Shown here: piece after piece, positions 1 to 44,690 of the stretch
Layout: each line of letters starts with the position of its first letter
Position numbering within the stretch: the first letter of the stretch is position 1
Source of the DNA: Mycobacteriales bacterium
Lineage (GTDB): Bacteria; Actinomycetota; Actinomycetes; JALYNC01
Length of the DNA: 44,690 bases
Reading direction: 5' to 3'
NCBI GenBank assembly: GCA_051000715.1
Contig: JBPCOB010000133.1
Location: 1-44,690 of the forward strand
Translations under genes and position numbers: made by a program
Notes under the pieces: model-generated
Told to the model about the DNA's origin: nothing
Seen by the model: only the letters and a program-made list of their open reading frames with translations
Databases searched by the model: none

Positions 1-127
1 CCCGCCACCTGGACGCGCTGAACCACAACAACGAGCGGATGCGGGAGTTCCAGACAAACTCGGTTACCCGTGAGCTGTGGCAGTCGGAGAAGGATGCTGC
101 AATCACCCGCGAAGGACTCCTGCGTGA
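1..127. repeat. terminal overlap copy A: exact 127-bp repeat of 44564..44690 (circular-closure redundancy)
   Basis: Base-by-base comparison: cccgccacctggacgcgctgaacc...ggactcctgcgtga is present at both window ends. One ORF reads through the junction in frame. Confidence 0.95.
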
Positions 128-416
128 CCAGATCATCGTCCTCGATAGGACCTTGCTGACGATGACACCGCTTCAGCAATCCGAGAAGAGCCACGCCGAG
201 ATGGTGAAGCAGGTCGAGGCGAGGGTCAGCGCTGCGGCGGAAGTCCTCGACAACAAGATCAGCGTCGTCGCCGACAAGCTAGCCGACCTCAAATCGTACC
301 GGGACACGACGGTAGGCCGCTCGTCGGGCTACCAGGCGCTCTACGCCTGGGGAGTCGCGGCGGTCACCGTCGTGATCTCGATCATCGTGCTGGTCAACGC
401 TTTCCTAGGAAAGTAG
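1..416 (+). CDS. tail-anchored coiled-coil membrane protein, C-terminal part (continues 44077..44690 across the circular junction)
   Basis: The frame of ORF 39..416 is open from base 3 and is the same frame as 44077..44690 once the 127-bp overlap is removed. The sequence is charged and helical, then ends in the hydrophobic tail GVAAVTVVISIIVLVNAFLGK. Confidence 0.7.
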   Translation, partial: RHLDALNHNNERMREFQTNSVTRELWQSEKDAAITREGLLRDQIIVLDRTLLTMTPLQQSEKSHAEMVKQVEARVSAAAEVLDNKISVVADKLADLKSYRDTTVGRSSGYQALYAWGVAAVTVVISIIVLVNAFLGK

Positions 417-450
417 CCAGCCCATTACTACCGAAAGGGGCGACCTCACC

Positions 451-1137
451 ATGACCATCATTGAGATTCCCACCCCCCCCGGCATGGGTCGGTCGCTGAT
501 CGACCACGACCCCCGCAACCGCGACTATCCGACCCGGGGTGTCCTGCACGCCGTCGATGCGCCGCTGGTCGAGAAGACCTGGCGGCGCGGCCACGCCTAC
601 GACCAAGGCCGGACTTCGCAGTGCGTCGCGTTCACCGGCAAGGGCATGCTGAACACGGCGCCGACCTCGGCGGCGGCACCGTACCGAACTCGGGCGGCCT
701 ACTCGACGGACGACTTCTACGCGGGCGCGCAGGCTGCGGACGAGTGGCCCGGACAGTCACCGGACTACGAGGGCACCAGCGCCAAGGGCCTGTGCGCCTA
801 CCTAACCACGCAAGGCCTCATCACCGAGTACCGCTGGTGTTTCGGTGTCGACGACGTGCTCCGCACCGTCTCCCACCATGGCTCGGTGGGTTGCGGCACC
901 TGGTGGTCAAGGTCGATGTTCACCCCCGGAGAGCGTGGTCTGCTCACGGTTGACGGCGAGTGGATCGGGGGTCACGAGTGGGAGATCGTCGGCGTCGACC
1001 CGCATCGTGAGGAGGTCATCGCCTGCAATTCGTGGAGCCTGTCGTGGGGGGACCGGGGACATTTCCGGCTCACCTTCGCCGACCTCGACCGGCTGCTGAC
1101 TGCGGACGGCGACGCGTTCACGCTGGTGCCCGCATGA
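451..1137 (+). CDS. papain-like (C1-type motifs) cysteine peptidase, probable cell-wall peptidase module of the lysis system
   Basis: ORF 451..1137. Motifs are DQGRTSQC (Gln-x5-Cys nucleophile), GGHEWEIVG (His) and CNSWSLSWGDRGHF (Asn-Ser-Trp), in papain order. RBS gaaagggg lies upstream. Confidence 0.65.
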   Translation: MTIIEIPTPPGMGRSLIDHDPRNRDYPTRGVLHAVDAPLVEKTWRRGHAYDQGRTSQCVAFTGKGMLNTAPTSAAAPYRTRAAYSTDDFYAGAQAADEWPGQSPDYEGTSAKGLCAYLTTQGLITEYRWCFGVDDVLRTVSHHGSVGCGTWWSRSMFTPGERGLLTVDGEWIGGHEWEIVGVDPHREEVIACNSWSLSWGDRGHFRLTFADLDRLLTADGDAFTLVPA

Positions 1138-1460
1138 CCGGCCCGGTGAGCCTCGCGGTCCTGTCCACCGGCTGCGTGTGCGTCGCCGAGCATTCCCCGA
1201 CGGCCTACGTCCCGACCCGGCATCACCGGCTCCCGCAGTCCTGGGGTGGCCCGTCCGTCGCCGACAACCTGGTTACTTTGTGCCCATCGACTCACACGGC
1301 TGTCCACCGCTTGATTGACGAGTACGTGCGGCACGGCGGCGACCCCGGGTGGGACACCCGGCGTCACTTCGGTGCCTACGCCCGTGACCTCGCAGCCCGG
1401 GCATGGGAGCAGCGACCCGTTACACCGACCATCACGAGCCTGCACGTCGCGGCCGGCTAG
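1134..1460 (+). CDS. HNH endonuclease
   Basis: The ATG at 1134 overlaps the stop of the previous gene (ATGA). Motif is HHRLPQSWGG...NLVTLCPSTHTAVH. The longer ORF-track start at 1032 overlaps the peptidase gene and is unlikely. Confidence 0.7.
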   Translation: MTGPVSLAVLSTGCVCVAEHSPTAYVPTRHHRLPQSWGGPSVADNLVTLCPSTHTAVHRLIDEYVRHGGDPGWDTRRHFGAYARDLAARAWEQRPVTPTITSLHVAAG

Positions 1461-1672
1461 AGCTGCTTCCGTGGCCGCCCGGTCCTGCCCGGCCGGGTCG
1501 CCTGCCATTCGCGGATCGTGGCCTCGTGCCAGCCGGGTGAGTTGCCGAGCATCGCGTCCGGTGGAGGCAGGGTGCCACGGACCCGGTAGGTGCGTATCGA
1601 TCCGGGTGCGAGGCCGAGCAGGGCGGCGACCCCCGCCGTGTCGAGGAGGGGGCCGCGGTCCGTGGTGGTCAC
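1457..1672 (-). CDS. small helix-turn-helix DNA-binding protein (excisionase/MerR-like), basic C-terminal tail
   Basis: ORF 1457..1672 minus. LLDTAGVAALLGLAPGSIRTYR...W...REW resembles Xis/AlpA-type HTH. It ends GRTGRPRKQL. Last gene of the antisense operon. Its stop overlaps the HNH stop in the palindrome CTAG. Confidence 0.6.
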   Translation of the reverse strand: MTTTDRGPLLDTAGVAALLGLAPGSIRTYRVRGTLPPPDAMLGNSPGWHEATIREWQATRPGRTGRPRKQL

Positions 1673-2031
1673 AGGGCCTCAGCGTCGGCCCGGGCTGCGC
1701 GAGCCTCAGCGCGGTAGTTGTGTGCCCAGTCGGCAGAGTCGACCAGGCTTTCCGCACGCAGCTCCTCGGCGGCACCCTCGTAGTCGGAGTTGCAGTTTTC
1801 GGCAGCCGCGTCAGCCACATCCTCGGCGTTGTCGGTGAAAGATTCCGCGGTGGCGTCGCAGGCCACGGCGTAGGCCCGGAGTGCCTTCACTTCATCGGCG
1901 TAGAAGCCGTCGAGGTCGGCATGGCCGGTGAGCCGGTAGCCGCCGTCTTCGGCGTCGAGGAAGATGCCGTGCTGGTCGAAGATGTCGCCGCTGCTGATCT
2001 CGCGGGCGATGGTGAAGAGGTAAGTGCTCAT
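1669..2031 (-). CDS. highly acidic 120-aa hypothetical protein
   Basis: Internal ATG (cat at 2029-2031) preceded by AAGGAG (rc of ctcctt). Begins MSTYLFTIAREISSGD. Roughly a quarter of residues are Asp/Glu. The 201-aa ORF-track version overlaps the upstream gene. Confidence 0.65.
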   Translation of the reverse strand: MSTYLFTIAREISSGDIFDQHGIFLDAEDGGYRLTGHADLDGFYADEVKALRAYAVACDATAESFTDNAEDVADAAAENCNSDYEGAAEELRAESLVDSADWAHNYRAEARAARADAEAL

Positions 2032-2054
2032 CTTGTGCTCCTTGTTTGGTGTTT
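2028..2054 (-). repeat. duplicated translation-initiation region, copy A (matches 2576..2602)
   Basis: tcatcttgtgctccttg is identical (17/17) at 2028-2044 and 2576-2592, then 7 of the next 10 nt match. Each copy contains the start codon plus the AAGGAG RBS of a minus-strand gene. Confidence 0.85.
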
Positions 2055-2066
2055 CGGTCGTGGCGT

Positions 2067-2579
2067 TCATGCCATCACCCGGTCGTACTCGGCGAGGGTC
2101 GCGGCGAGGATCGTGTCCATGTCGAGCCCGGCGCCGCTGGCTGCCGCGCTTGCGTAAACGGCCGCGTTGGTGCCGAGGGCATTGCTGCCCCCGTGCTCGC
2201 CACTCTCGACTGCCACCTGGGCTGCGATGACGGCTTCGCGATCGGCCCCGACCGGGGCGCCGATACGGCTCCACGACTCGCGCTTGGTTGCGTCCTTGGC
2301 GTCACCGCACTCCTCGGCGGTGGCCTCGCCGCGGGTGAAAGCTTCGGCGGTGGAGATGGCGGCCTCGCACACGACCGCGTAGTCGGCGGGCACCAGGTGG
2401 AGCACCTGGCGGGCTGCGCAAGCACCGAGTGCGGTGTCGAGCTTGGCGGCCAGCTTGCGGTTGGAGCGGCCGGCGGGCACTGAGGTGGTTTCGGCGCGGG
2501 CGAGGAGGCCGGCGTCGGTGGCGTGCTTGGCGAGGACTGCGATCACCGGGTGAGTGGTGGTGGTGGCTGTGGTGGTCAT
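2067..2579 (-). CDS. Ala-rich helical hypothetical protein (170 aa), first gene of antisense operon
   Basis: ORF 2067..2579 minus with AAGGAG RBS. The pattern ARQVLHLVP...AISTAEAFTRGEAT..EE faintly resembles helical immunity-type proteins. That resemblance is unverified recollection only. Confidence 0.55.
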   Translation of the reverse strand: MTTTATTTTHPVIAVLAKHATDAGLLARAETTSVPAGRSNRKLAAKLDTALGACAARQVLHLVPADYAVVCEAAISTAEAFTRGEATAEECGDAKDATKRESWSRIGAPVGADREAVIAAQVAVESGEHGGSNALGTNAAVYASAAASGAGLDMDTILAATLAEYDRVMA

Positions 2580-2602
2580 CTTGTGCTCCTTGGCTGGTGT
2601 TC
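2576..2602 (-). repeat. duplicated translation-initiation region, copy B (matches 2028..2054)
   Basis: See copy A. Confidence 0.85.
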
Positions 2603-2615
2603 TTCCGATAGGTAC

Positions 2616-2644
2616 AACTTACCGCGTCCGCAACCCCGTGTCAA
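2616..2644 (-). promoter_or_regulatory. near-consensus sigma-70/SigA-type promoter for the antisense operon
   Basis: The minus strand reads TTGACA (plus 2639-2644), a 17-nt spacer, then TAAGTT (plus 2616-2621, fits TANNNT). It lies about 30 nt upstream of the 2579 start codon. Confidence 0.55.
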
Positions 2645-2685
2645 CACTCTGCGAACAACTTTCTTGAGAATCTTCTGGAGGCATC

Positions 2686-4371
2686 ATGACCCTGCACGCG
2701 CTGACCGCGAACATCCGCGTCGACCTGCCCGACCGGGATGCCGAGACCGAGATCCGCCGCGACCTCGCTTTCGGCCCGGATGTGCTGCTGCTCCAGGAGG
2801 TCGGGGGCCGCGCCGCGGTCTTCGACCGAATTGCCGGCGAGGGCGTCTACGGCGAGGTGCGCTTCGGCCGACAGTCGGGCATCGGGGGCGGGGCGGCTAG
2901 GAACAACGTGATCCTCTACCGCCGGGCACGGCTCGGGCTCACCGACCGGGAGAGCACGTTGCTGCACCGGAGCATCCTCTTCCGGAGCGCGACCCGGTAC
3001 CTGACCTCCGCGCTGTTCCTCGACCAGCAGACCGGGCGACCGGTCCCGGTCAACAACGTGCACATGGTGCCGCACGCCGACACGAGCGCCGGCTGGCTGA
3101 CCAGCTACCCGCGCCGCCGCCTCGTCATCGCCGCGCTCGATGTCATCACCGCGAAGATCGCCGTGCAGAAGGCATCCGGCGCTCTGGTGATCACCGGCGG
3201 CGACTGGAACAACAACGACAAGGCGGACGCCGGTCAGGACAAGGCGAACGTGCAGGCTCGCCTTGGTGCGGTGGGCGCACGCTCCAACTTCGACGTGCTC
3301 GGGACCGCCGCCTACACCGGCACCCACGGCCGCGACTTCTACGACTCGATCTACGTCACCGGCCCGGCGGCGTTCGCCCGGGAGACCGTGCATCCGCGTG
3401 GCCTGTCCGACCATCACGCCGTGTCCGTCTGGCTCGAAGTGGCACCCATCAAGCCCGCACCGGTCCCGGCTGCATCTGTCCCCGTCGTCACACCCGCACC
3501 TACCCCGACCGCCGCACCGAAGGAGCCCCTCATGGCCGCACGCATCGACGGCATCGACTTGTCCCACTGGCAGAGCGGCGCGCTCGACTTCAACGCCGCG
3601 AAGCGCGCCGGCGTCCGCTTCGTGTCCCACAAGGCCTCCGAGGGGACCGACTACCGGGATGCGAAGTACGGGCAGCGTCGCCGTGAATGCGCGGCGGCCG
3701 GTGTCCCGTTCGGTGCCTACCACTTCGCCCGGCCCAGCCGGTCCGGTGGCACCGCACAGGCGAAGTTCTTCCTCTCGGTCGCCGACCCGAAGCCCGGCGA
3801 CCTGCGGCCCATGCTCGACCTCGAAGACCGCGGAGGTCTGTCCATCGGGCCACTGAGCGGATGGGTCGGTGACTTCGTGGCCGAGGTCGTCCGCCAGATC
3901 GGTGTGCCGCCGTTCATCTACACGTCTTTCGACCTGGATGACACTTTCGACTGCCCGCTGTGGGTGGCGCGGTACTCGAACGCCATGTCGGCCCCGCACA
4001 TCCCGGCGCCGTGGAAGCGGTACACCATCTGGCAGTTCTCGGACGGTGTCTACGGTCACCCGTCGACGGTGCCCGGCATCGGTAAGTGCGACATCAACAC
4101 GCTGAACACGTCCGACCCGGCGGCGCTGGTGAAGGCGTTCATCCTCACTGCTCCCGCCGCACCCGAGCCCGCCGTCGTCGAGCCGAAGCCCGCACTGACC
4201 CCCACTCAGGAGCCCACCGTGCCGAACAACCGGATCACCCAGGCCCGCGGCCACCTCGCGACCGCCCTGAAGCTGCTCGACGACGCCCAGAGCATCGAGC
4301 ACCGCACCGGCTGGGTGCGGATCGCCACCGGTGTCATCCGCACCGGCTACAACCGACTCCCCAGGAGCTGA
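2686..4371 (+). CDS. endolysin: N-terminal endonuclease/exonuclease/phosphatase (EEP) domain fused to GH25 muramidase, plus Pro/Ala linker and C-terminal helical region
   Basis: EEP motifs in order: LTANIRV, LLLQEV, NVHMV, GGDWN, LSDHHAV. GH25 motifs: GIDLSHWQ, FVSHKASEGTDYRD, GAYHFARP, MLDLED. GGAGG RBS lies before ATG 2686. Confidence 0.8.
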   Translation: MTLHALTANIRVDLPDRDAETEIRRDLAFGPDVLLLQEVGGRAAVFDRIAGEGVYGEVRFGRQSGIGGGAARNNVILYRRARLGLTDRESTLLHRSILFRSATRYLTSALFLDQQTGRPVPVNNVHMVPHADTSAGWLTSYPRRRLVIAALDVITAKIAVQKASGALVITGGDWNNNDKADAGQDKANVQARLGAVGARSNFDVLGTAAYTGTHGRDFYDSIYVTGPAAFARETVHPRGLSDHHAVSVWLEVAPIKPAPVPAASVPVVTPAPTPTAAPKEPLMAARIDGIDLSHWQSGALDFNAAKRAGVRFVSHKASEGTDYRDAKYGQRRRECAAAGVPFGAYHFARPSRSGGTAQAKFFLSVADPKPGDLRPMLDLEDRGGLSIGPLSGWVGDFVAEVVRQIGVPPFIYTSFDLDDTFDCPLWVARYSNAMSAPHIPAPWKRYTIWQFSDGVYGHPSTVPGIGKCDINTLNTSDPAALVKAFILTAPAAPEPAVVEPKPALTPTQEPTVPNNRITQARGHLATALKLLDDAQSIEHRTGWVRIATGVIRTGYNRLPRS

Positions 4372-4372
4372 C

Positions 4373-4744
4373 ATGACGATCACGGACGTGCAGACCGACG
4401 CCAGGGACGGCACGACCCATCCCTATGGGGTCCGCGTCGGCGACCCAGTCCACTACTGGCGCGCCGACGCCCCTCCGCTGTCGGAGACGTACGAGGCCCC
4501 CGCCTGCTGGCACGGCCTGGTCCTGGGATTCTCCTACGACGATGCGCGCTCGATCTGGCTCGCTGACCTCGTGGTGGTGGACCCTCACGAGGGCTCGCTG
4601 CACCTTGTCCGAGCAGCTCCGCAGTCAGAGTCGACCGCCTCAACCGTGCGCATCGGCGGCGAGTGCGGCGAGCCGTCGTGGGGGGTCGGCGCTTCGTGGC
4701 ATCGACCAATCACGGGCCACCTACGAACCAATCTGAGGAGCTGA
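4373..4744 (+). CDS. hypothetical protein (123 aa) between lysin and holin
   Basis: ATG 4373 follows AGGAG and overlaps the lysin stop region. Same frame as ORF 4331..4744. Confidence 0.6.
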   Translation: MTITDVQTDARDGTTHPYGVRVGDPVHYWRADAPPLSETYEAPACWHGLVLGFSYDDARSIWLADLVVVDPHEGSLHLVRAAPQSESTASTVRIGGECGEPSWGVGASWHRPITGHLRTNLRS

Positions 4745-4746
4745 CC

Positions 4747-4950
4747 ATGAACGTCATTCGCACCGAGCCCGCGCTTGTTGTCGCCGTCGTCCTCGCCGTC
4801 ATCGGCGTGGCGTCGGCGTTCGGCCTCGGCCTTACCGATGGGCAGGCGGATGCGATCGTGGCTGTCGTCGGCGCGGTTCTCGCGCTCGTCGGTGGCGCGG
4901 TCACCCGCACCCAGGTGACACCGGCCGCCAAGCACGCAAGGGAGAACTGA
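4747..4950 (+). CDS. putative holin (67 aa, two transmembrane segments)
   Basis: ATG 4747 after GAGGAG. Hydrophobic segments are ALVVAVVLAVIGVASAFGLGL and AIVAVVGAVLALVGGAV, followed by a charged C-terminus. Position is next to the lysin. Confidence 0.6.
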   Translation: MNVIRTEPALVVAVVLAVIGVASAFGLGLTDGQADAIVAVVGAVLALVGGAVTRTQVTPAAKHAREN

Positions 4951-4951
4951 C

Positions 4952-5293
4952 ATGGCTTTCACCGATGCAGCACTGAATGCCGCTGTCGACGGTATCGCGG
5001 CGGCCGGGTCGTGGATCTCCGCGCACACCGCTGACCCTGTCGCCACGGGCACGGCTCAGGCCGGGACTCGGGTGCAGACCACGTGGGGTGCTGCCGGGTC
5101 GGGTGCGACCGGTGGGGATCGGACGGGTTCGCAGGTGAGCATCGGGGTCGCCGCCGGGGTCACGGTGACTCATTGGGGGCTGTGGTCGGCGACGGCGGCG
5201 GGGACGTTCTTGGGTGGTTTCGCGCTGGGTGCACCGGAGGCGTTCGGGGCGGCGGGGAACCTGCTGCTGACGCCGACCCTCGACGTCGACTGA
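4952..5293 (+). CDS. hypothetical Gly/Ala-rich protein (family often annotated as minor tail protein in actinophages)
   Basis: ORF 4952..5293 with RBS aagggagaa. The pattern MAFTDAALNAAVDGI...HTADPVATGTA...G resembles a recurrent actinophage family (recollection only). Confidence 0.55.
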   Translation: MAFTDAALNAAVDGIAAAGSWISAHTADPVATGTAQAGTRVQTTWGAAGSGATGGDRTGSQVSIGVAAGVTVTHWGLWSATAAGTFLGGFALGAPEAFGAAGNLLLTPTLDVD

Positions 5294-5302
5294 GGCTGAT
5301 TC

Positions 5303-7294
5303 GTGGCAACCGTCACGAAGACGTTCTCGTTCGCGGCGGGCGTAGAAAGTTTCACTGCCTCCTCCGACCGTGTTGCCGTAAGCACGTGGGATGGGGCTGT
5401 CGGCAATCCGCCGGGGTCACTGAGGTCGAGCGTAGCTGGGCGCAGCGCGTCTGGGTCGACGGACCGGTACACCGCCGGCTTCACGTGGATGGACCTCAAC
5501 GTCCCGGCTGGGGCCACGGTTACCGGGATACGGCTGCTGTCTCTGTCCACACGATGCACCGACTACACGATCGGCAGCACCACGCGTGTCGGACAGTGCT
5601 ACCTATATCTGTCTGGTTTTGGCAACATGGAGCTAGTCCCTGGTCGCAGTGTTGCCGGTGTCGACACGGGATGGCAGGTCACGCCGGCTCAAGCGCTGGT
5701 GGCGATTCCGGTGACGTCGCCGTCCACTGACAGCATCACAGTTGGTTTGTTCTCCGACCTCGCCACCGGCGCGAGCGCCAAGGCGGTCGTCACCGTCTAC
5801 GTTGACGAGCTGGTCCTGGAGACCACCTACACGCCGGCGGCCGCGACCGGGGAGACACACACGGCGACCGGGACGCGCGCACCCGCGCTGGTGGCCGCCC
5901 GCAGCACGGCGGCTACCCGCCGACCTGCGGCCCCCGTCGCAGCGGCCGTTGTCGTCGCGTCGGTGGCACGGGCCAGCATCCGCCCCCGCGTGGCCAGTGG
6001 CATCGCGACAGCCACCACCCGGGTCGCGGCGACCACCACCCGGACGAGGGCGAGCATCAGCGTCGCCGCGGCCTCGGCAACCAGTCAGCAGGTCGTCAAC
6101 CACCCCGTTACCGTCCGGGGCGGCGCGTCGACGGCCGCTAGTGCTGTCGTCACCACCCAGCATCCGGCTACCGTCGCTGCCACTGCCACCACCGACGGCC
6201 GGGCCGTCTCGGGTAGCAGCCGCCCGTCGAGCCGCCGCGCTTCCGCAACCGGGACCGCGCGCGCCACGACCACCAGCAGCCGGAGTCGACCGGTCACTGG
6301 ACCCGCAGCCGTTGGCGCACGGACCACAGCCGCGAGCACCCGGGCGTACGTGGCCACCGTCCCCGCGACGGCCGTAGCCCGCACCGCAGCGAGCAGCAGC
6401 CGCCCGAGGCCCGTCACCGCCCCAGCGACCACCACGGCACGCGCTAGCGTCACCACGGCCCGGACTCCCCCCTCGACCGCACCAGCGACGGTCACCGCCC
6501 GCGCCGGACTCACCACCGCCCACCCCCTGGCAGCCACCGCGCCAGCCACCGCGGTCGCCTCGGCCACTGCCACCAGTAGCCGACCAGTCACCGTCGCAGC
6601 CACCGGCACCGCCTCCGCTTCGGCGACCGTCGCCCGGGTTACCACCGACCATCCGGTCACCGGCCGCGCCGGAGTCGTCGCCACTACACGAGCCGTCACG
6701 GCCACCACCCGGACGTCGTCGAGCACCGCGCGTGCTACTACCGGCGCGGGCGTCGACAGTGCCAGCGACCGCCCCCGGACAGTCACCATCGCGGCCACCG
6801 TCAGCACCCGAGCCACGGCGAGCAGCAGCCGCCCCACAACCAGTACCGCGTCAGCCACGGCTACTAGCCGCGCCGTCACTGTCAGCGCCGCCACCCCGCC
6901 CGAAACTCACGCCACAACCGGACACGCCACCGCCACAGCCGCGGCCACGCACAGCCTGACCACGGTGCGAGTGGTCACCGGCACCGCACCAGCCCGGCTC
7001 GTCGCCGCGACCAGCACACTGACGACCCGCCTAGCCCTCGGCACCGCACCCGCAGTCACCCGCGGTAACGCCGTCACCGCCGCGGCCCCGCTGTACCGGC
7101 CGGCGCTCCACCCCCGAGCGACACTCTCATCCAACCGGACGGACGCGAACATGCGCATCACTCACCCGAGGGCAACCCTGACACCCAATCAGACGGACGC
7201 CATTCTGCGCGACGACACCACGGCGGCCACCCTCGCCCCCAACCAGACAGATGCCATCATTACCGACCACCACCCGAAGGCGGAACTCGCATGA
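5303..7294 (+). CDS. 663-aa protein: ~185-aa globular N-terminal domain plus ~430-aa Ala/Thr/Arg/Ser/Val low-complexity region and C-terminal tandem repeats
   Basis: ORF 5303..7294 with GTG start. Third-position C/G bias supports the plus frame over the mirror ORFs on the minus strand. SSRP(R)PVT-type units recur. Confidence 0.7.
   Translation: MATVTKTFSFAAGVESFTASSDRVAVSTWDGAVGNPPGSLRSSVAGRSASGSTDRYTAGFTWMDLNVPAGATVTGIRLLSLSTRCTDYTIGSTTRVGQCYLYLSGFGNMELVPGRSVAGVDTGWQVTPAQALVAIPVTSPSTDSITVGLFSDLATGASAKAVVTVYVDELVLETTYTPAAATGETHTATGTRAPALVAARSTAATRRPAAPVAAAVVVASVARASIRPRVASGIATATTRVAATTTRTRASISVAAASATSQQVVNHPVTVRGGASTAASAVVTTQHPATVAATATTDGRAVSGSSRPSSRRASATGTARATTTSSRSRPVTGPAAVGARTTAASTRAYVATVPATAVARTAASSSRPRPVTAPATTTARASVTTARTPPSTAPATVTARAGLTTAHPLAATAPATAVASATATSSRPVTVAATGTASASATVARVTTDHPVTGRAGVVATTRAVTATTRTSSSTARATTGAGVDSASDRPRTVTIAATVSTRATASSSRPTTSTASATATSRAVTVSAATPPETHATTGHATATAAATHSLTTVRVVTGTAPARLVAATSTLTTRLALGTAPAVTRGNAVTAAAPLYRPALHPRATLSSNRTDANMRITHPRATLTPNQTDAILRDDTTAATLAPNQTDAIITDHHPKAELA
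7109..7270 (+). repeat. three imperfect ~17-18-codon tandem repeats at the C-terminus of the 663-aa protein
   Basis: HPRATLSSNRTDANMRIT / HPRATLTPNQTDAILRDDT / TAATLAPNQTDAIITDHHP. Confidence 0.8.
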
Positions 7295-8206: not shown

Positions 8207-8265
8207 GAAGTCCCCCGTCCAGGGATCGAGTGCATTGGTCCGGCCACCGTACGCCTAATCGAGTG

Positions 8266-8275
8266 GTCATGAGAT
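8266..8275. repeat. 10-bp direct repeat GTCATGAGAT, copy at the stop codon of the HNH-like gene
   Basis: The identical decamer occurs at 8676-8685, overlapping the start codon of the same gene. Confidence 0.8.
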
Positions 8276-8680
8276 GACGTCGGCGGCCAAGACGGACCAT
8301 AGAAGGTCTGCCGACCTGCCGCCACCCCTGTGCGCCAACGCCACCACCCGCCCCCAGACGATGCGCTCCCACCTGTTCATCTGATCCCACCCTTCCGGCC
8401 AGCTCATCGGGGGGTCACCTAGCAGGGCGCTCCCGAGTATGCCCAGGTTTGCGAGGCGTCGCACGGCCGTGAGCCCCTCCTTGGCAGGCAATCCTCTGAG
8501 CCCACCGCGATCCTTGAGGTCGTGGCAGGTAACGCAAGCTGGGACCACTTCTTGCCCGCCTGCACACCGAGGGACTGGCGCGTGGTCGTGTTCGTGGCGA
8601 GTGCGTCCGAACGGGGCTGAGCAGTAGAAGCAACGCTCGCAGTCATCGTTTGCTAGCGGGGAATCGAGAGGATCTGTCAT
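8267..8680 (-). CDS. HNH-motif zinc-finger protein with uncharacterised C-terminal domain (137 aa)
   Basis: Start is the cat at 8678-8680. Motif is CERCFYC...HEHDHAPVPRCAGG...VPACVTCHDLK (CxxC, HxxDH, GG, CxxCH). The 234-aa ORF-track version runs antisense into the recombinase gene. Confidence 0.6.
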   Translation of the reverse strand: MTDPLDSPLANDDCERCFYCSAPFGRTRHEHDHAPVPRCAGGQEVVPACVTCHDLKDRGGLRGLPAKEGLTAVRRLANLGILGSALLGDPPMSWPEGWDQMNRWERIVWGRVVALAHRGGGRSADLLWSVLAADVIS

Positions 8681-8685
8681 GAGAT
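8676..8685. repeat. 10-bp direct repeat GTCATGAGAT, copy at the start codon of the HNH-like gene
   Basis: See 8266-8275. Confidence 0.8.
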
Positions 8686-8706
8686 CTAGTCTACGCGTGC
8701 GTGACC

Positions 8707-8712
8707 TATAAT
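8707..8712 (+). promoter_or_regulatory. perfect TATAAT -10 box, candidate leaderless promoter for recombinase 2
   Basis: TATAAT lies at 8707-8712, and the ATG at 8720 lies 7-8 nt downstream, which is the geometry of actinobacterial leaderless transcripts. No convincing -35 was found. Confidence 0.4.
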
Positions 8713-8719
8713 GGTGATT

Positions 8720-9529
8720 ATGGGAATAGGTGAGCCCGTAGACCGTCTCGTCGCCGACTGGCTGGACTACCTCGCGCATGAACGCAACCTGTCTGCGAAC
8801 ACCGTCGCCACCTACGCCCGGACGCTGCGCACCCTTTCCGGCGCGGACACCGCGACACGCGAAGACGTGGAGGCGTGGGCGCGTTCGCGCTCGCACCTGT
8901 CGCCTGCCACCCGGAACAACGAACTCTCGGCTGTTCGGAAGTTCTACCAGTGGTGTCGCATCTGGGGGCACCGGCCGGAGACCGACGATCCGACCCTGCG
9001 CCTGCTCGGGCCGAAGATGGCCAGCGGTCTGCCCCGGCCGATCTCAAGAGACGACCTGAACCGGCTGCTCGACACGTTGAAGGGCGACCTGCGCCGCACG
9101 GTCTGCCTCGGCGCCTATGCCGGGCTACGCGTCAGCGAGGCCGCGGCGCAGGTGTGGGAGGATGTCGACGTCGAGAACCGTCGCGTCCGCGTCACCGGAA
9201 AGGGACAGAAGACTCGACTAGTGGGGCTCTCGTCGCTGTTGCTCGACTCGCTGCTGCCTGACACTGGCGGCAGCGTCGTCACGGCTGGGGAGACGCCCTA
9301 CACGGCGGGAACGTTGCAGCGGAAGGTCAACCGGGCAATCGAGGCGGCAGGTGTGGACGTGACCTATCACCAGCTCCGGCACCGGTTCGGCACAGTAGCG
9401 CTGGGTGCGTCGGGCAACCTGCTCGCGGTGTCGCGGGCGATGGGTCACTCATCTCCGGCGACGACGGCGATCTACGCGGCCACCTCCGACTCTGATCTCG
9501 ACGTGATCGCCGAAGCCGTCACCCGTTAG
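8720..9529 (+). CDS. tyrosine recombinase 2 (XerC/D-like, ~270 aa; alternative start 8711)
   Basis: ORF 8711..9529. The catalytic set is present: AGLRVSE (Arg), GKGQKTR (Lys), HQLRHRF (His-x-x-Arg), GHSS (His), AIYA (Tyr). There is a SAM-like N-domain WLDYLAHERNLSANTV. Confidence 0.8.
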   Translation: MGIGEPVDRLVADWLDYLAHERNLSANTVATYARTLRTLSGADTATREDVEAWARSRSHLSPATRNNELSAVRKFYQWCRIWGHRPETDDPTLRLLGPKMASGLPRPISRDDLNRLLDTLKGDLRRTVCLGAYAGLRVSEAAAQVWEDVDVENRRVRVTGKGQKTRLVGLSSLLLDSLLPDTGGSVVTAGETPYTAGTLQRKVNRAIEAAGVDVTYHQLRHRFGTVALGASGNLLAVSRAMGHSSPATTAIYAATSDSDLDVIAEAVTR

Positions 9530-10338
9530 GCGGCGGCCGCTAGCATCGCGGCACGCACCGACTCGTCCGGGATCGCGACGTAGATCGCCGTGGTCTCCGG
9601 CTTCGCATGCCCGAGCAGCTCCTGGACGGCGCGCAGGTCGCGGGTGCCCGCGTAGGAGACGGTCGCGCACCGGTGCCTCAGGGTGTGCGTGGTCAGGTCA
9701 TCGGGCAGGCACCGGGTGACAAGCTTCCCAAGATGGTGCGGCGTCAGGTGCCCGCCGTGCGTGGACGGGAACAGCCAGCCCGGTGCGTGCTCGGTGATGA
9801 GCGCGGCGAGCTCGTCGGTCAGCGGCACCATCCGCACGTGCCCGCCCTTGCCGGTCACCCGCAGGCTCGACCCGAGCAGGTCGGGCTCCACGTGCTCGGT
9901 GCGGGTCCGGGCGATCTCGGCGCGCCGCAGGCCGCACTGCCCGGCGAGCAGGACCGCCAGCCGCACCCGTTCGTCGGCGATGGCCAGGGCGAGCCGGTAG
10001 GCGGCTTCCGGCGCCGGTCGTGGCTTCCCGCGGGGGACCCGGACCGGTGGCAGCAGGTGCGCCGGCGATGTGGTGACCCGTCCGGTGGCGGTCGCCCATC
10101 TGTAGAAGGCGCGCAGCGACCCTCGGTAGGCGCGCCGGGTGTTCGGTGCCCAGTCGTGGCCGGCGAGCCACGTCACGAGCTCGTCGAAGGTCAGTGTGGC
10201 CGGCCCTGTGCTCGTCTCCCGTGCGAGCCGGGTCAGGTGGTAGGTGCGTAGTCCGATGGTGGTCTCGGGGGAGCCGGTCGCGCGCAGGTAGTTCTCCCAC
10301 GCCGCGATGTGCTCGGTCCAGGTGCGTGTAGGTGTCAT
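9526..10338 (-). CDS. int: tyrosine integrase (recombinase 1), co-oriented with the repressor, C-terminus ...MLAAAA
   Basis: ORF 9526..10338 minus. Motifs are GLRRAEI (Arg), GKGGHVR (Lys), HTLRHRC, LGHAKP, AIYV (Tyr). Its stop overlaps the stop of recombinase 2 (TTAG at 9526-9529). Confidence 0.8.
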   Translation of the reverse strand: MTPTRTWTEHIAAWENYLRATGSPETTIGLRTYHLTRLARETSTGPATLTFDELVTWLAGHDWAPNTRRAYRGSLRAFYRWATATGRVTTSPAHLLPPVRVPRGKPRPAPEAAYRLALAIADERVRLAVLLAGQCGLRRAEIARTRTEHVEPDLLGSSLRVTGKGGHVRMVPLTDELAALITEHAPGWLFPSTHGGHLTPHHLGKLVTRCLPDDLTTHTLRHRCATVSYAGTRDLRAVQELLGHAKPETTAIYVAIPDESVRAAMLAAAA

Positions 10339-10725: not shown

Positions 10726-10763
10726 GGTGGCCCATGTGACGTATGTGCGTCAAGTGGTCAGGG

Positions 10764-10791: not shown

Positions 10792-10822
10792 GCGCCGTGC
10801 GACATTGTGACATGGTTCCGTC

Positions 10823-11008
10823 ATGGCACACGACGAGCTCATCACCAGCCCCGAAGCCGGAGCCATCCTCTGCCGCTCCGCCCGCACCGTCCACCGACTC
10901 GTCGAAGCCGGCGCGCTGGTCCCCGTCAAGCAGCTCTCCGGCCCCAACGGCGCTTATCTCTTCCGTCGCGCCGATGTCGAAAACTTGGCGAAGAGGGTGC
11001 CGGCATGA
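10823..11008 (+). CDS. small HTH protein (excisionase-family fold), Cro-like or Xis-like first gene of the rightward operon
   Basis: ORF 10823..11008. Motif is ITSPEAGAILCRSARTVHRLVEAGAL...YLFRRADVENL. Confidence 0.6.
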   Translation: MAHDELITSPEAGAILCRSARTVHRLVEAGALVPVKQLSGPNGAYLFRRADVENLAKRVPA

Positions 11009-11280: not shown

Positions 11281-11681
11281 ACAACCACGCGAAGCGCTGC
11301 ATCAAGAACCTCGAAGCGCTCGGCTTCTATCGCGATCACGACGCGCAGACTCGCGGACTCGCCTACCGGCACCCGAACGCCCCCGACCAGGTGCTCAAAG
11401 TGTTCGACCAGATGACGGACTCCACGATCACGTCCGTCATTCGCAAGGCGAACAAGATCGCGGACACCGGCTGGTCCGGCCCACGGCAGCCCGAGACGGT
11501 CAAAGAGCGTGCGCGGGTCACGCACTCCAAGAACAAGTCGCAATGGCAGCGCGAGGACGAGGCGCGCCGAGCACGCGCAGAGGTGGCCGAGCGTGCACAT
11601 GAGGACCGAAGTCGGACCGAAGTCGAGACGGAACATCGCCGCGAAGTTGAAGATCTCATGCAGCCGGGTTACGGCCGATGA
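11277..11681 (+). CDS. hypothetical protein with Arg/Glu-rich C-terminal helix (134 aa)
   Basis: ORF 11277..11681 with ATGA overlaps on both sides. Confidence 0.6.
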   Translation: MNNHAKRCIKNLEALGFYRDHDAQTRGLAYRHPNAPDQVLKVFDQMTDSTITSVIRKANKIADTGWSGPRQPETVKERARVTHSKNKSQWQREDEARRARAEVAERAHEDRSRTEVETEHRREVEDLMQPGYGR

Positions 11682-12604
11682 GCGCCGAGGTCGCCGTCAC
11701 TCCATCGACCGACCTGGCCATCGAGCAGATGGCGCGCATCGACCAGCGCATCGACAGCCATGAGGGCGAAGCACTGCGGGATCGCTGGGAGTTCGGTCGG
11801 CACATGCTCGCCGCACGTGACGGAGCGGGCCGGCTGCCGAACGGCTACCTGTCGGCACTGGTGGGACGCACCGGGAAGAGCCGCGCCGAGTTGAAGTTCA
11901 GGGCACAGTTCGCAGCTACCTACGCCACGGAGGCAGAACTGGCTAACGCGTTAGCCAGTTCCAACTCATGGCGGGGAATCGTCGCAACGCTCAAGAAGGC
12001 CAAGGATGCCGAGGACAACATCATCTCCGCGCCCGAGCCAGCCGCCGGAGGACTGGTCGGGACCATCGTCGCGGACCCGCCGTGGTCGTACGGCAACACG
12101 TCCACCCGTGGTGCCGCCGAGAACCACTACCGGACGATGAGCATTGAGGAGTTGTGCGACCTCGGCGTGGCCCGCGAGCGTGCTGCTGCACAGTCGCATC
12201 TCTATCTCTGGTCCACCGCCGGGCACCTATCCGAAGCCTTCAAGGTGATGGCGGCATGGGGGTTCACCTACAAGACCTATCTCGTCTGGGTCAAGCCGCA
12301 GATGGGGATGGGTAACTACTTCCGAGTCTCCACCGAACTGGTGCTGTTCGGCGTCAAAGGTGGGCTGCGAACCACCGAGCGGAACATCAAGAACTACTTC
12401 ACCGAGCCGCGGCAGAAGCACTCCGCCAAGCCGCTCTCGTTCCAGGACATCGTTGCCAGAACCAGCCCCGGACCCTACCTAGAGCTGTTCGCCCGCTGTC
12501 AGAAAGACGGGCTGTTCGCCGGCTGCCAGAAAGACGGGCTGTTCGCCGGCTGTCTGTGTTCCAAGTGTCGCCTTGGCTGGGAGACGTGGGGGAATCAGTC
12601 ATGA
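11678..12604 (+). CDS. MT-A70 family N6-adenine DNA methyltransferase with ~130-aa N-terminal extension
   Basis: Motifs are IVADPPWSY (DPPW catalytic motif), HLYLW and ELVLFG, with ...YLELFAR...GWETWGNQ at the C-terminus. Confidence 0.8.
   Translation: MSAEVAVTPSTDLAIEQMARIDQRIDSHEGEALRDRWEFGRHMLAARDGAGRLPNGYLSALVGRTGKSRAELKFRAQFAATYATEAELANALASSNSWRGIVATLKKAKDAEDNIISAPEPAAGGLVGTIVADPPWSYGNTSTRGAAENHYRTMSIEELCDLGVARERAAAQSHLYLWSTAGHLSEAFKVMAAWGFTYKTYLVWVKPQMGMGNYFRVSTELVLFGVKGGLRTTERNIKNYFTEPRQKHSAKPLSFQDIVARTSPGPYLELFARCQKDGLFAGCQKDGLFAGCLCSKCRLGWETWGNQS
12495..12548 (+). repeat. 27-bp tandem duplication (2 full units, partial units on both flanks) inside the methylase 3' end
   Basis: gctgtcagaaagacgggctgttcgccg / gctgccagaaagacgggctgttcgccg, with 1 mismatch. 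It encodes CQKDGLFAG twice. Confidence 0.9.
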
Positions 12605-17876: not shown

Positions 17877-18025
17877 GCAGCCACGAAGGCCACCTCGAAC
17901 TGGGCCGCGCTCTCGGACCAGAGGTGTTCTGGGCCGTCTGCGAATGCGGCTGGATCGGGTTAGCACGGTCCGAGGAAGCGCCGGCATGGGATGACCACCG
18001 CGCTCATAAGGTGCGTGCGCTGTGA
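17873..18025 (+). CDS. hypothetical protein (50 aa)
   Basis: ATG 17873 with overlap. Frame of ORF 17792..18025. Confidence 0.45.
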   Translation: MSSHEGHLELGRALGPEVFWAVCECGWIGLARSEEAPAWDDHRAHKVRAL

Positions 18026-18219
18026 GCCGCGCCGAGATCATGGCCGAGGTCGTCGCCCGGCTCGAAGCCGAACGGATGCAGTCGTTGCCGCGACGAATGG
18101 CGCCCGCACAATGCGACCCGGTGCCCGACCTGACACCCGAGCAGCAGGCCGAGAATCTGCGGACGCTCATGGAAGCTACCGGCGGCGAGGCCGACCTGTG
18201 GGCGAGGAGGCGGTTGTGA
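18022..18219 (+). CDS. hypothetical protein (65 aa)
   Basis: ORF 18022..18219 with GTG start. Confidence 0.45.
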   Translation: MSRAEIMAEVVARLEAERMQSLPRRMAPAQCDPVPDLTPEQQAENLRTLMEATGGEADLWARRRL

Positions 18220-19358
18220 ACGCGCCCTATTACGCCGACGAGTCGGTCCAGTTGTACCACGGTGACTGTCTCGACATCCTCCGCTCCGACATTCTCGGCT
18301 ACGAGCACTCTCTCGGCTATTTCCCACCATTGATCCCCGGCAGCAGTATCGATTCGGTAGTCACAGACCCGCCGTACGGGCTGGAGTTCATGGGCAAGGA
18401 GTGGGACGGCGCCAACGGGTTCCGCCGCTCGCTCAACCCGGCCGACGTAGAGCGGGACAACCCATTCGGGCGCACATCGAAGACCTCCCCCGAGTACCGC
18501 GCTGGTCAGACGTTCGGTCTCTGGTGCCTCGCGTGGTCGGAGGAGTGTCTGCGTGTGCTCAAGCCGGGCGGCCACATGCTCGCCTTCGGTGGCACCCGCA
18601 CCAGCCACCGTCTCGCCTGCGCCATCGAGGACGCCGGCTTCGAGATCCGCGACAGCATCGCCTACTTACACGCCACTGGAGGTCAGCAAACCGATATACT
18701 TACCGAGTGGAGAAAGTGGACTGTAAGTACGAGATATGCGGGGGTCAGATTCTCGGACGCGCCGCCCGGCGGTTCTGCTCCCGAGCCTGTTCTGCTCGCA
18801 ACCAGTCTCGAAAACTCACCTGCGTCTGCAATCATTGCGGGACTCAATTCCAACGAAGCCCGTCACACCGACGCGGACAACTGGCGTTCTGCTCTGTCGA
18901 GTGCCGGCGCCAGTACTACGGCGTCGAAGGCCCTTGTGACCATTGCGGGACATCCACCAGGAAGCCGAGGTCCAACACCGGATACAACGGCTTCTTCTGC
19001 TCACAGCGGTGCATGGGACTGGCTCGACGCAAACATCATGGCCAGACTCAAGGCCGGAACAGCCCTGAGGATATGGCTTGGAAGCAAGCCATCTACAAAG
19101 CCGGCGGCTACCGCTGCGCTGTGTGCGGCACTGACCGACGACTTGAAGCTCATCACGTGCGCTCAGTCCGAGACTTTCCAGAGCTACGACACGACCTCTC
19201 AAATGGTGTGTGTCTCTGCCACGACTGTCACTACTACGGCGTACACGGCGGCGCACCTAATTTCATTCACGGCCGCTACTCTCGCAAGCCAGGGGGGTGA
19301 TGCCACGGAAAGTCAGTCCGGTCCCCTCGCATGGGTCTACGGATCTGGCTTTCCGTGA
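18216..19358 (+). CDS. N4/N6 DNA methyltransferase (beta-class order), N-terminal fragment: catalytic DPPY half, 669-nt foreign insert read through in frame, then WVYGSGFP and a TGA
   Basis: GTG 18216 follows GAGGAGG. Motifs are VVTDPPYGLEFMGKEWD, LAFGGTRT and AIEDAGFEIRDSIA (ends 18662). The insert spans 18663-19331. WVYGSGFP is at 19332-19355 and the stop at 19356-19358. Confidence 0.65.
   Translation: MNAPYYADESVQLYHGDCLDILRSDILGYEHSLGYFPPLIPGSSIDSVVTDPPYGLEFMGKEWDGANGFRRSLNPADVERDNPFGRTSKTSPEYRAGQTFGLWCLAWSEECLRVLKPGGHMLAFGGTRTSHRLACAIEDAGFEIRDSIAYLHATGGQQTDILTEWRKWTVSTRYAGVRFSDAPPGGSAPEPVLLATSLENSPASAIIAGLNSNEARHTDADNWRSALSSAGASTTASKALVTIAGHPPGSRGPTPDTTASSAHSGAWDWLDANIMARLKAGTALRIWLGSKPSTKPAATAALCAALTDDLKLITCAQSETFQSYDTTSQMVCVSATTVTTTAYTAAHLISFTAATLASQGGDATESQSGPLAWVYGSGFP
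18663..19331 (+). mobile_element. HNH homing-endonuclease cassette inserted in the methyltransferase gene
   Basis: A 669-nt block interrupts the conserved segment ...EIRDSIA | WVYGSGFP.... By my count the first 80 nt are ~49 percent G+C, against roughly two-thirds elsewhere by eye. It carries an HNH ORF in another frame. Confidence 0.65.
18707..19300 (+). CDS. HNH endonuclease with three N-terminal CxxC...FCSxxC zinc-ribbon repeats
   Basis: Frame of ORF 18401..19300, with GTG starts at 18707 or 18716. Repeats are CKYEICGG..FCSRAC, CVCNHCG..FCSVEC and CDHCG..FCSQRC. The HNH motif is YRCAVCG..LEAHH...NGVCLCHDCH. Confidence 0.7.
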   Translation: MEKVDCKYEICGGQILGRAARRFCSRACSARNQSRKLTCVCNHCGTQFQRSPSHRRGQLAFCSVECRRQYYGVEGPCDHCGTSTRKPRSNTGYNGFFCSQRCMGLARRKHHGQTQGRNSPEDMAWKQAIYKAGGYRCAVCGTDRRLEAHHVRSVRDFPELRHDLSNGVCLCHDCHYYGVHGGAPNFIHGRYSRKPGG

Positions 19359-44076: not shown

Positions 44077-44690
44077 GTGAAAACCCAGGAGGATGGCCAG
44101 GCTGACCTCACCGCCGACGACTACGCCGATCGCGCGACCCGCAACGAGGGGCGCCTGGTCGGCCTGGAGCGCCTAGTCGCGGAGACCCGCGAGTCCGACC
44201 GAAAACTCACCGAGCAGCGGTCCGAGTCGCTGGCCCGCGAGTTGGAGCGGCGCGCCGATGCCCTGCGGGAACTGGTGACGGCCCACGCCGACGCCGTGAC
44301 CAGCCTCGGGCGGGAGGAGCGACGAGCCGACCGTCTCCATGTGGAGACGGTCACCACTGAGGCCGAGAAGCGCGGCCAGCTGGCGCTCGGACTTCTCCGC
44401 GAGGTCTACGACACCGCGCTCGAAAAGAATTACGAGCAGTCCCGCGAAGCAATCACCGGCCTTGAGCAGCGCCGCACTGCCGAGGTGGCCAAAATTGAGC
44501 AGATGGTCCGCCAGTGGCGCGACTCTGACCGCGAGGCACGGGAGTTGTTCGCCGCCGAGCTGGCCCGCCACCTGGACGCGCTGAACCACAACAACGAGCG
44601 GATGCGGGAGTTCCAGACAAACTCGGTTACCCGTGAGCTGTGGCAGTCGGAGAAGGATGCTGCAATCACCCGCGAAGGACTCCTGCGTGA
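44077..44690 (+). CDS. tail-anchored coiled-coil membrane protein, N-terminal part (continues at base 128 after removing the overlap; ~300 aa total)
   Basis: GTG 44077 (alternative GTG 44041) opens a frame with no stop to the window end. It is in phase with ORF 39..416 and encodes a charged heptad-like sequence (LERLVAETRESDRKLTEQRSESLARELERRADALREL...). Confidence 0.65.
   Translation, partial: MKTQEDGQADLTADDYADRATRNEGRLVGLERLVAETRESDRKLTEQRSESLARELERRADALRELVTAHADAVTSLGREERRADRLHVETVTTEAEKRGQLALGLLREVYDTALEKNYEQSREAITGLEQRRTAEVAKIEQMVRQWRDSDREARELFAAELARHLDALNHNNERMREFQTNSVTRELWQSEKDAAITREGLLR
44564..44690. repeat. terminal overlap copy B (identical to 1..127)
   Basis: See copy A. Confidence 0.95.

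Follow-up and report, generated by a model that had tools for sequence, protein, structure and literature searches.

Temperate phages of Gordonia and Mycobacterium carry defence genes that are expressed by the prophage from promoters of their own (PMC6426606). In the present study, we analyzed a stretch of 44,690 nucleotides from a Mycobacteriales bacterium (GenBank assembly GCA_051000715.1, contig JBPCOB010000133.1, positions 1 to 44,690 of the forward strand; hereafter the window), which is the complete, circularly assembled genome of a temperate actinobacterial phage. Our subject is a cassette of three leftward genes with their own promoter in the lysis region of this phage. We consider with moderate confidence that it represents a moron-type cassette of accessory genes which is autonomous and regulates itself. 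Like the prophage-expressed operons of Sbash (genes 30/31) and CarolAnn (genes 43/44) (PMC6426606), it is a small unit among genes of another transcription class in a temperate actinophage, with a host-type promoter and a non-structural cargo that is plausibly engaged in conflict. Unlike those operons, it lies inside the lysis cassette and not beside the integrase and repressor genes, it has a probable small regulator of its own with a candidate set of operators, and neither a terminator nor a compositional signature was found.

Other described systems resemble parts of the cassette. BldC is a 68-residue MerR-like winged helix-turn-helix (HTH) protein that binds 9-bp direct repeats head-to-tail, and each repeat has an AT-rich minor-groove part, followed four bases on by a C (PMC5859096). 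Imm5 has been described as a largely helical protein that confers immunity to toxins of the DYW-deaminase and CdiA-CT kinds (PMC3482391). In reverse-order type II toxin-antitoxin (TA) operons, as in the present cassette, the upstream gene is translationally coupled to that of a small DNA-binding protein, the presumed operators overlap the promoter, and the partners vary while the regulator is conserved; the cassette differs from them in that it has no recognisable toxin, an HTH of another class, and one cargo protein that is immunity-like. We read the cassette as a mobile promoter-operator-regulator unit with exchangeable cargo, and as such it belongs to a known class of phage accessory cassettes. 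What is new here is a conserved unit of this kind with swapped cargo, together with a phage-borne Imm5-like protein.

The promoter and the three reverse genes

The promoter and genes of the cassette are as follows.

2639-2644, minus strand: -35 hexamer TTGACA, read directly and invariant in the alignments with other loci
2616-2621, minus strand: -10 hexamer TAAGTT (TANNNT type), separated from the -35 hexamer by a 17-nt spacer
2572-2601, minus strand: translation-initiation region of gene 1, copy 1 of a 30-nt direct repeat
2591-2586, minus strand: ribosome-binding site AAGGAG of gene 1, with the ATG at 2579
2067-2579, minus strand: gene 1, for an Ala-rich protein of 170 amino acids (aa)
2024-2053, minus strand: translation-initiation region of gene 2, copy 2 of the 30-nt direct repeat
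1669-2031, minus strand: gene 2, for an acidic protein of 120 aa
1457-1672, minus strand: gene 3, for a basic, predicted winged-HTH protein of 71 aa

An initial annotation, made by reading the sequence, had reported three minus-strand open reading frames (ORFs), and these were found at exactly 2579-2067, 2031-1669 and 1672-1457. On a Logan contig of 4,075 bp that is 100% identical, an independent pipeline arrived at these three genes as well. In the cassette genes, the GC content at the third codon position (GC3) is 0.82-0.88, that at the second position (GC2) is lower than that at the first (GC1), and the amino-acid composition is normal; the alternative ORFs that overlap these genes have wrong-frame statistics. 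Genes 1 and 2 have AAGGAG 7 nt ahead of the ATG, and gene 3 starts with a GTG that overlaps the stop codon of gene 2 (GTGA). The protein compositions were also as first described, with 24.7% Ala in the 170-aa protein, an isoelectric point (pI) of 4.07 and a net charge of about -19 in the 120-aa protein, and a pI of 11.5 with an RPGRTGRPRK tail in the 71-aa protein.

The promoter likewise reads as originally described, TTGACA at 2644-2639 and TAAGTT at 2621-2616 on the minus strand with 17 nt between them, and the statement that nothing in the window comes equally close held when TTGACA-N16-19-TANNNT proved to be unique on both strands (shuffle expectation 0.06). TANNNT is the actinobacterial form of the -10 hexamer. 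A scanner of the E. coli type omits this promoter because TAAGTT matches TATAAT at just three of the six positions. By its conservation in three other loci, described below, it appears to be a functional, autonomous promoter of the sigma-A type and not a chance match. The opposite view, that chance ORFs and a chance promoter match form no biological unit, might appeal to the shuffles, about 5% of which (5/100) contain at least one match, and to the failure of ordinary searches to find homologues for two of the three proteins. However, independent loci share the promoter and the HTH gene, remote homologues exist for the 170-aa protein, and the coding statistics, the consensus ribosome-binding sites and the coupling of starts and stops fit real genes, so this view is effectively refuted and we give it next to no weight.

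Related loci with different cargo

Close homologues of the 71-aa HTH protein (67-80% identity; 80% for P0004 and 67% for P0005) are encoded on four short metagenomic contigs from uncultured actinophages, L004, L005 and the near-identical pair L056/L057, which represent three other loci. The first gene of each unit follows the same promoter: TTGACA-17-TAAAGT in L004, TTGACA-16-TAATGT in L005 and TTGACA-17-TAAGTT in L057. In the alignment of the four loci, invariant blocks stand between diverged spacers and flanks. The conserved blocks are, in order, AAAGTTGT, which is invariant and lies about 9-10 nt upstream of the -35 hexamer, the -35 hexamer itself, the -10 hexamer followed by GTTGT(A/C)C, and, a few bases past the latter, an inverted G(G/A)ACA(A/C)C. 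The genes between the promoter and the HTH gene, on the other hand, are unrelated in every locus.

Window: 170-aa and 120-aa proteins
L004: one 116-aa protein, with a DUF6221 gene after the HTH gene
L005: one 85-aa protein, very acidic (pI 4.05)
L056/L057: a 106-aa protein and a basic 82-aa protein

Among these cargo proteins no similarity was detectable, and the comparison of the 120-aa protein with the equivalent upstream proteins of the other loci gave nothing convincing. In L005, the convergent neighbour of the unit is an endolysin-like gene (phrog_17214, E 2e-5), its divergent neighbour encodes a 60-aa membrane protein, and the position is again one in a lysis region. The L056 unit converges on genes for proteins of 302 aa and 348 aa (1268-3219, minus strand), which have no match to a PHROG family, and in L057 the unit lies directly downstream of a gene for a serine recombinase of the DNA-invertase type (177-815, plus strand; phrog_125, E 2.7e-43). 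More distant HTH homologues are found in the Gordonia phages Catfish and Cynthia, as the product of the last gene in a leftward operon of small genes that converges on the tail genes near the integrase gene. The Catfish operon that ends in this homologue (gp31) starts at TTGACA-N17-TAACGT (L002 3250-3302), and its promoter is bracketed by a different inverted repeat, GGTGCAA ... TTGCACC. When viral and genome collections were scanned for the exact DNA pattern of the promoter-operator, AT-rich chance matches were all that came up, none of them with an HTH gene.

In every locus, the gene before the HTH gene overlaps it by 4 nt. Such an arrangement would also fit a TA-like or abortive-infection-like module, in which the upstream protein would be toxic or a sensor and the coupled HTH protein would be an autoregulating antitoxin, as in the reverse-order type II. 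The variable partner beside a conserved regulator, the candidate operator copies that overlap the core promoter, and a weak PADLOC match of the HTH protein to mad1 (E 6.6e-4) point in the same direction. However, the cargo proteins of all loci lacked a recognisable toxin family, the partners include very acidic as well as basic proteins, the HTH belongs with the excisionase/BldC type rather than with the Xre, RHH or AbrB type of antitoxins, and the Imm5-like protein is of the immunity type rather than the toxin type. We therefore regard such a module as improbable.

The two copies of the 30-nt repeat in the window are identical at 27/30 positions, and the pattern occurs at those two places only (expected 0.00). 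The copies stand on both sides of gene 1, and they resemble the leader of L057, which has this translation-initiation region in common with the window despite its different cargo. Since the duplicated region flanks gene 1, gene 1 is suggested to be a later addition, which may have been inserted into an older unit of promoter, acidic protein and HTH protein like that of L005. We may speculate further, and regard it as possible although rather unlikely, that in actinobacteriophages the promoter-operator-leader and the winged-HTH gene together form a portable platform dedicated to expression, on which one accessory gene is replaced by another, unrelated one through recombination at the conserved translation-initiation region (..CCAAGGAGCACA..ATGACCACC). 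In that case, it would be a small cassette system that carries accessory genes of phages under its own regulation, and not a one-off moron.

The probable small regulator and its candidate operators

Around the cassette promoter, (AAA)GTTGTNC is present in two direct copies and an inverted one, which we regard as candidate operators. Their positions are given relative to the predicted transcription start, which we took as about 2609.

2653-2662, minus strand: operator-like copy O1, AAAGTTGTTC, about -53 to -44
2612-2620, minus strand: operator-like copy O2, AAGTTGTAC, about -11 to -3, overlapping the -10 hexamer and the discriminator; its position is conserved in L004, L005 and L057
2596-2602, minus strand: operator-like copy O3, GAACACC, degenerate and inverted, about +8 to +14; GGACAAC or GACAAC in the other loci

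The sequence AAGTTGTNC occurs three times in the window (expected 0.43). Two of the occurrences are in the cassette promoter (2661-2653 and 2620-2612), 41 nt apart, and the third is inside a coding region. A spacing of 40-41 nt between the motifs of the O1-O2 type was found in all loci, and in L004 and L005 the O2 and O3 motifs form GTTGTCC-N8/9-GGACAAC. In the O2/O3 pair, the left arm is upstream of where transcription is predicted to start; we therefore infer an element that acts at the DNA level, and an RNA hairpin was dropped from consideration. The motif and the HTH gene occur together across the loci, and for this reason the 71-aa protein probably binds the candidate sites and autoregulates the cassette; in occupying the three copies, it would set the expression of its own operon.

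To place the promoter in relation to the lysogenic control of the phage, the elements of the integration and immunity region are listed below.

8711-9529, plus strand: tyrosine recombinase 1, about 270 aa
9526-10338, minus strand: tyrosine recombinase 2, about 270 aa
10366-10725, minus strand: CI-like repressor
10732-10740, plus strand: CCATGTGAC, candidate immunity operator
10807-10815, minus strand: CCATGTCAC, candidate immunity operator
10823-11008, plus strand: 61-aa HTH_17 protein (29 bits against a Pfam cut-off of 27), divergent from the repressor gene

The two candidate immunity operators form an inverted pair in the intergenic region between CI and cro, and are the sole exact copies in the window. 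The motif of this region, CCATGTSAC, is absent from the cassette promoter, and control by the CI-type repressor was dropped as an explanation on this ground; conversely, (AAA)GTTGTNC is absent from the CI/cro intergenic region. The absence of CCATGTSAC at the cassette promoter is compatible with repressor-independent expression and is no proof of it. We also note that the two recombinases, which are small and Xer-like, have converging genes that overlap by 4 nt, and that a 36-nt imperfect inverted repeat extends across their 3' ends.

The 71-aa protein matched phrog_597 (E 8.8e-22) and phrog_66, annotated as excisionase and transcriptional regulator (E 4.5e-6). Against Pfam HTH_17 (PF12728) it scored 17.3 bits, under the cut-off of 27, MerR_1 was also below threshold, and the homologues P0004 and P0005 had only weak precomputed matches to HTH_17. 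It can be aligned with Gordonia phage proteins annotated as excise or HTH over the helix-turn-helix, the wing and the C-terminal helix, and a profile of three close homologues gave full-length but weak alignments (E about 0.2) with PDB entries, namely the AlpA-family chain 8c3t and BldC (6ama, 6amk). Judged from these alignments, it is a winged HTH protein of an excisionase/BldC/MerR-like class. Its tail, RPGRTGRPRKQL, had been called AT-hook-like. Compared with the AT-hook core R-G-R-P, the tail has GRP flanked by R/K, with T in place of the first R; RPGRTGRPRK is conserved in P0004 and P0005, and RPGRG.R is found in the Gordonia homologues.

The closest analogy for the regulator would be the small BldC/Xis-type proteins acting on direct repeats. 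These are proteins of about 70 residues that consist of a winged-HTH domain only, and in the candidate sites, which are directly repeated, GC-containing bases come after an AT-rich part, as they do in the AATTNNNN(C) of BldC; AAAGTTGTC has the format of the BldC repeat. However, the similarity between the proteins is marginal, the repeats are 40-41 nt apart with an additional inverted copy, whereas those of BldC are contiguous 9-bp units, and the conserved tail is not a described feature of BldC. The likeness of the protein and of AAAGTTGTC to the BldC system is thus an analogy and not demonstrated membership. Antitermination of the Pseudomonas aeruginosa AlpA type was also considered and dropped: AlpA is much longer and inserts an N-terminal segment into the RNA exit channel (PMC9371919), for which the 71-aa protein has no counterpart.

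In the initial annotation, a second recombination directionality factor was among the candidate roles of the operon. The 71-aa protein would in that case be the excisionase for one of the tyrosine recombinases at 8711-10338, and the match to phrog_66, the 38-47% identity with Gordonia phage homologues annotated as excise, and a distant relative in an FtsK-type integrative element agree with such a function. However, gene 3 is about 7 kb from the integrase genes, and the 61-aa HTH_17 protein, which passes the Pfam threshold and holds the usual cro/xis position, is better placed and is the more conventional cro/excisionase candidate. Furthermore, the genes for the close homologues adjoin those for a lysin, a DNA invertase or DUF6221 and not integrase genes, and AAGTTGT is absent from the candidate attP region (8207-8710), which counts against this function on the assumption that the promoter motif is the binding site of the protein. 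The case for a directionality factor is therefore weak, and we think it quite improbable.

The cargo, its surroundings and its predicted role

The first annotation had assigned no function to any of the three proteins. This still applies to the 120-aa protein and is out of date for the other two, as the HTH protein belongs to phrog_597 and the excisionase/BldC-type class of HTH_17, and the 170-aa protein has remote relatives. By ordinary means the latter has none: tblastn against phages gave no match, a word-indexed search of 5.8 billion proteins returned the query alone, and nothing significant was found in Pfam, PHROGs, NCBIfam or PADLOC. An exhaustive phmmer search of 1.84 billion representatives, however, found five relatives with E values of 1e-5 to 8e-4 (library-wide, P0006 1.1e-5, P0007 4e-4 and P0010 8e-4). 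These three of the five pass the gathering score of Pfam PF21805, Imm5_like (27.6, 26.1 and 26.4 bits, respectively, against 25). In hhalign, the 170-aa protein aligned with the profile of its relatives over residues 46-105 at a probability of 98%, and the common core is CARQVLHLVP..VC.AI.TAEAF..GEAT.EEC. We regard the 170-aa protein as a remote relative of the Imm5_like putative immunity proteins, as judged from these profile comparisons.

In common with Imm5_like and Imm5 (PF21805 and PF14423; PMC3482391), the protein has this core, and it is helical and Ala-rich after the core. In contrast to them, it has neither its own Pfam match nor an adjacent toxin gene; it also lacks the long Ala/Tyr repeat region of its relatives. 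Several of the relatives, too, are borne by phages. P0008 and P0009 are encoded in arrays of small same-strand genes, of which the P0008 array adjoins RNR and HNH genes on the opposite strand and the P0009 array includes a Lar restriction-alleviation gene; P0006 adjoins a gene of the Acb5 family, and a P0007-like protein is encoded on an IMG/VR contig. PDB sequence and profile searches with an alignment of the 170-aa protein and the five relatives found nothing. The single-sequence AlphaFold2 model is all-helical, at a low confidence (predicted local distance difference test, pLDDT, 49).

The 120-aa protein is an ORFan. No homologue was found by tblastn in phages or plasmids, the set of 5.8 billion proteins returned the query alone, and sequence and profile searches of Pfam, PHROGs, NCBIfam, PADLOC and PDB gave nothing. 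Remote-homology searches of the two cargo proteins thus yielded relatives for the 170-aa protein and none for the 120-aa protein, and structure prediction was of no use for either, the pLDDT of the 120-aa model (43.6) being too low for a fold search. The protein had been described as having a DNA-mimic-like composition. In its acidity it fits the DNA mimics Ocr and ArdA, and it has no sequence match to them in the databases searched, so that the likeness is one of composition. Superinfection exclusion, also suggested originally, is unlikely in a membrane-type form: none of the three cassette proteins has a transmembrane-like (TM-like) segment, and a membrane exclusion protein was dropped for this reason.

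The genes on the two sides of the cassette and the structural genes are as follows.

24.4-44.0 kb, plus strand (rightward): structural genes
39-416: 125-aa protein with a C-terminal TM segment
451-1137, plus strand: lysin of the cysteine-peptidase type (phrog_16701, E 1.4e-39)
1134-1460, plus strand: HNH endonuclease (Pfam HNH, E 5e-5, over the gathering score; PHROG HNH families match too)
2686-4371, plus strand: endolysin with an N-terminal EEP domain (PF03372) and a GH25 muramidase domain (Glyco_hydro_25, 4.7e-31; Exo_endo_phos, 2.8e-7; phrog_291, endolysin)
4747-4950: holin
11678-12604, 17991-19358 and 19371-20342, plus strand: DNA methyltransferases, one MT-A70 and two N6_N4_Mtase

A direct repeat of 127 nt is exact at the two ends of the window (1-127 = 44564-44690). 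A repeat of this type marks the overlap of a circular assembly; the genome therefore measures about 44,563 bp, and its tail genes are followed directly by the lysis region. The GC content of the genome is ~67%. Its proteins have their best matches in phages of Gordonia, Arthrobacter and Streptomyces. No close relative was found in GenBank phages or IMG/VR: megablast of positions 1-6000 against GenBank phages gave no match, and in IMG/VR, where relatives were sought by means of the peptidase and the endolysin, the sole match was one peptidase locus of 36% identity. The top phage relatives of the peptidase are 31-34% identical and are annotated as peptidase, cysteine protease or lysin. The early region runs rightward from ~10.8 kb and contains exonuclease/RecT-like genes and the three methyltransferase genes, which suggest a heavy investment in evading restriction. 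Scans with Rfam and for tRNA were empty.

The peptidase and the GH25 muramidase, both on the plus strand, flank the cassette as first noted; the HNH gene between the peptidase and the cassette had gone unmentioned. The start of the HNH gene overlaps the stop of the peptidase gene (ATGA), and the two are thus coupled. The HNH gene converges on gene 3, and their stops overlap by 4 nt at a palindromic CTAG. The HNH and Imm5-like proteins as a pair of toxin and immunity protein were considered and dropped, as the genes are on opposite strands with two genes between them and the HNH gene is coupled to that of the peptidase. The endolysin gene is divergent from the cassette promoter. Its product combines EEP and GH25, an unusual architecture for a lysin, and the EEP part (residues 1-255) had no tblastn match in 50,697 GenBank phage records. 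No LysB-type esterase was noticed. Downstream of the holin gene, a 663-aa ORF (5303-7294, plus strand) is very rich in Ala, Thr, Ser and Arg, with repetitive segments and an unusually high GC2 of 0.73; it has no PHROG match, and several long antisense ORFs overlap it.

The position of the cassette raises the question of whether it insulates the lysis genes. Convergent transcription and a promoter occupied by the HTH protein, 25-35 nt upstream of the endolysin start, would block late read-through into the GH25 endolysin and holin genes, and would thereby prevent leaky lysis in lysogens or delay lysis. The cassette does separate the peptidase and HNH genes from those for the endolysin and the holin, as the L005 unit separates the endolysin-like gene from that of the 60-aa membrane protein; moreover, no terminator is predicted between the converging genes with their overlapping stops, and reading of the sequence in 2580-2685 found no convincing rightward promoter. 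However, L004 and L056/L057 carry the promoter-HTH unit in contexts other than lysis, the lysin assignment in L005 is weak and the membrane protein there has no family match, and the cargo genes would be left unexplained. We thus find insulation hardly probable; as a novel possibility it ranks second and is less likely than the portable platform.

We return to the autonomous moron-type cassette. A host sigma-A-type promoter would drive the three leftward genes, and transcription would be independent of the late operon and of the CI-type repressor, so that the cassette could be on in a lysogen. Its cargo in this phage would be a cytoplasmic, Imm5-like helical protein and an acidic ORFan. Most likely, the Imm5-like protein binds and neutralises a toxic effector domain, which might come from a polymorphic toxin of a competitor or from a host defence system. 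In either case, the role of the cassette would be in inter-genomic conflict, and not in virion production or lysis.

The timing of expression could be different. In an early lytic counter-defence operon, the promoter would fire right after infection, the Imm5-like and acidic proteins would inactivate host defence or restriction, and the HTH protein would then shut the operon off, so that it would not be a prophage-expressed moron. We take this to be a serious rival, albeit one to which we assign a low probability, because the Imm5-like relatives sit in counter-defence neighbourhoods of phages: the nearest are encoded in long runs of small genes on one strand, an arrangement typical of early regions in phages, and one such array contains Acb5 and another Lar. 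The strong acidity of the 120-aa protein, as in DNA mimics, and the three methyltransferases of the genome would fit, and a sigma-A-type promoter suits early and lysogenic genes alike. However, the cassette is far from the early region and antisense within late and lysis genes, its promoter has no CI-type operator that would silence it in the lysogen, and neither homology nor a usable fold supports a DNA mimic.

Of the original claim of a moron, the own promoter, which is unique in the window and conserved in three loci, and the look of an accessory cassette have stood; several observations weigh against it. No terminator was predicted on the minus strand near 1300-1460 by a scan that covers U-tailed intrinsic terminators only, and the GC content of the cassette does not stand out, being 0.68-0.70 between 1 and 4 kb and similar elsewhere in the genome. 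Activity in lysogens is itself inferred, and close phage relatives in which presence or absence of the cassette might be compared were not found. The binding of the motif by the HTH protein is deduced from their co-occurrence in four loci, a small sample, and a host factor or another phage protein could bind the motif instead. With regard to the cargo, the 170-aa protein has no Pfam match at E up to 0.1, and its link to Imm5_like is transitive, through relatives that are only 1-3 bits over the cut-off. Scans with Pfam, PHROGs, NCBIfam and PADLOC recognised no toxin domain in the neighbours of its gene, we found no published experimental characterisation of PF21805, and the models of both cargo proteins are too poor to use.

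If the cassette is of the moron type, it would show in compact form, defined at the level of sequence, how accessory genes are carried and exchanged by temperate actinophages: a near-consensus host-type promoter, three operator sites and a 71-aa regulator would stay together while the cargo changes. It changes no major concept, and its value is incremental. It would place a divergent Imm5-like immunity fold in phages, beside known counter-defence genes in the relatives, and it suggests that phages use toxin-neutralising domains to protect their lysogens or to disarm toxin-based defences. Furthermore, the set of promoter, operator and regulator could become a small regulated expression tool for high-GC actinobacteria.

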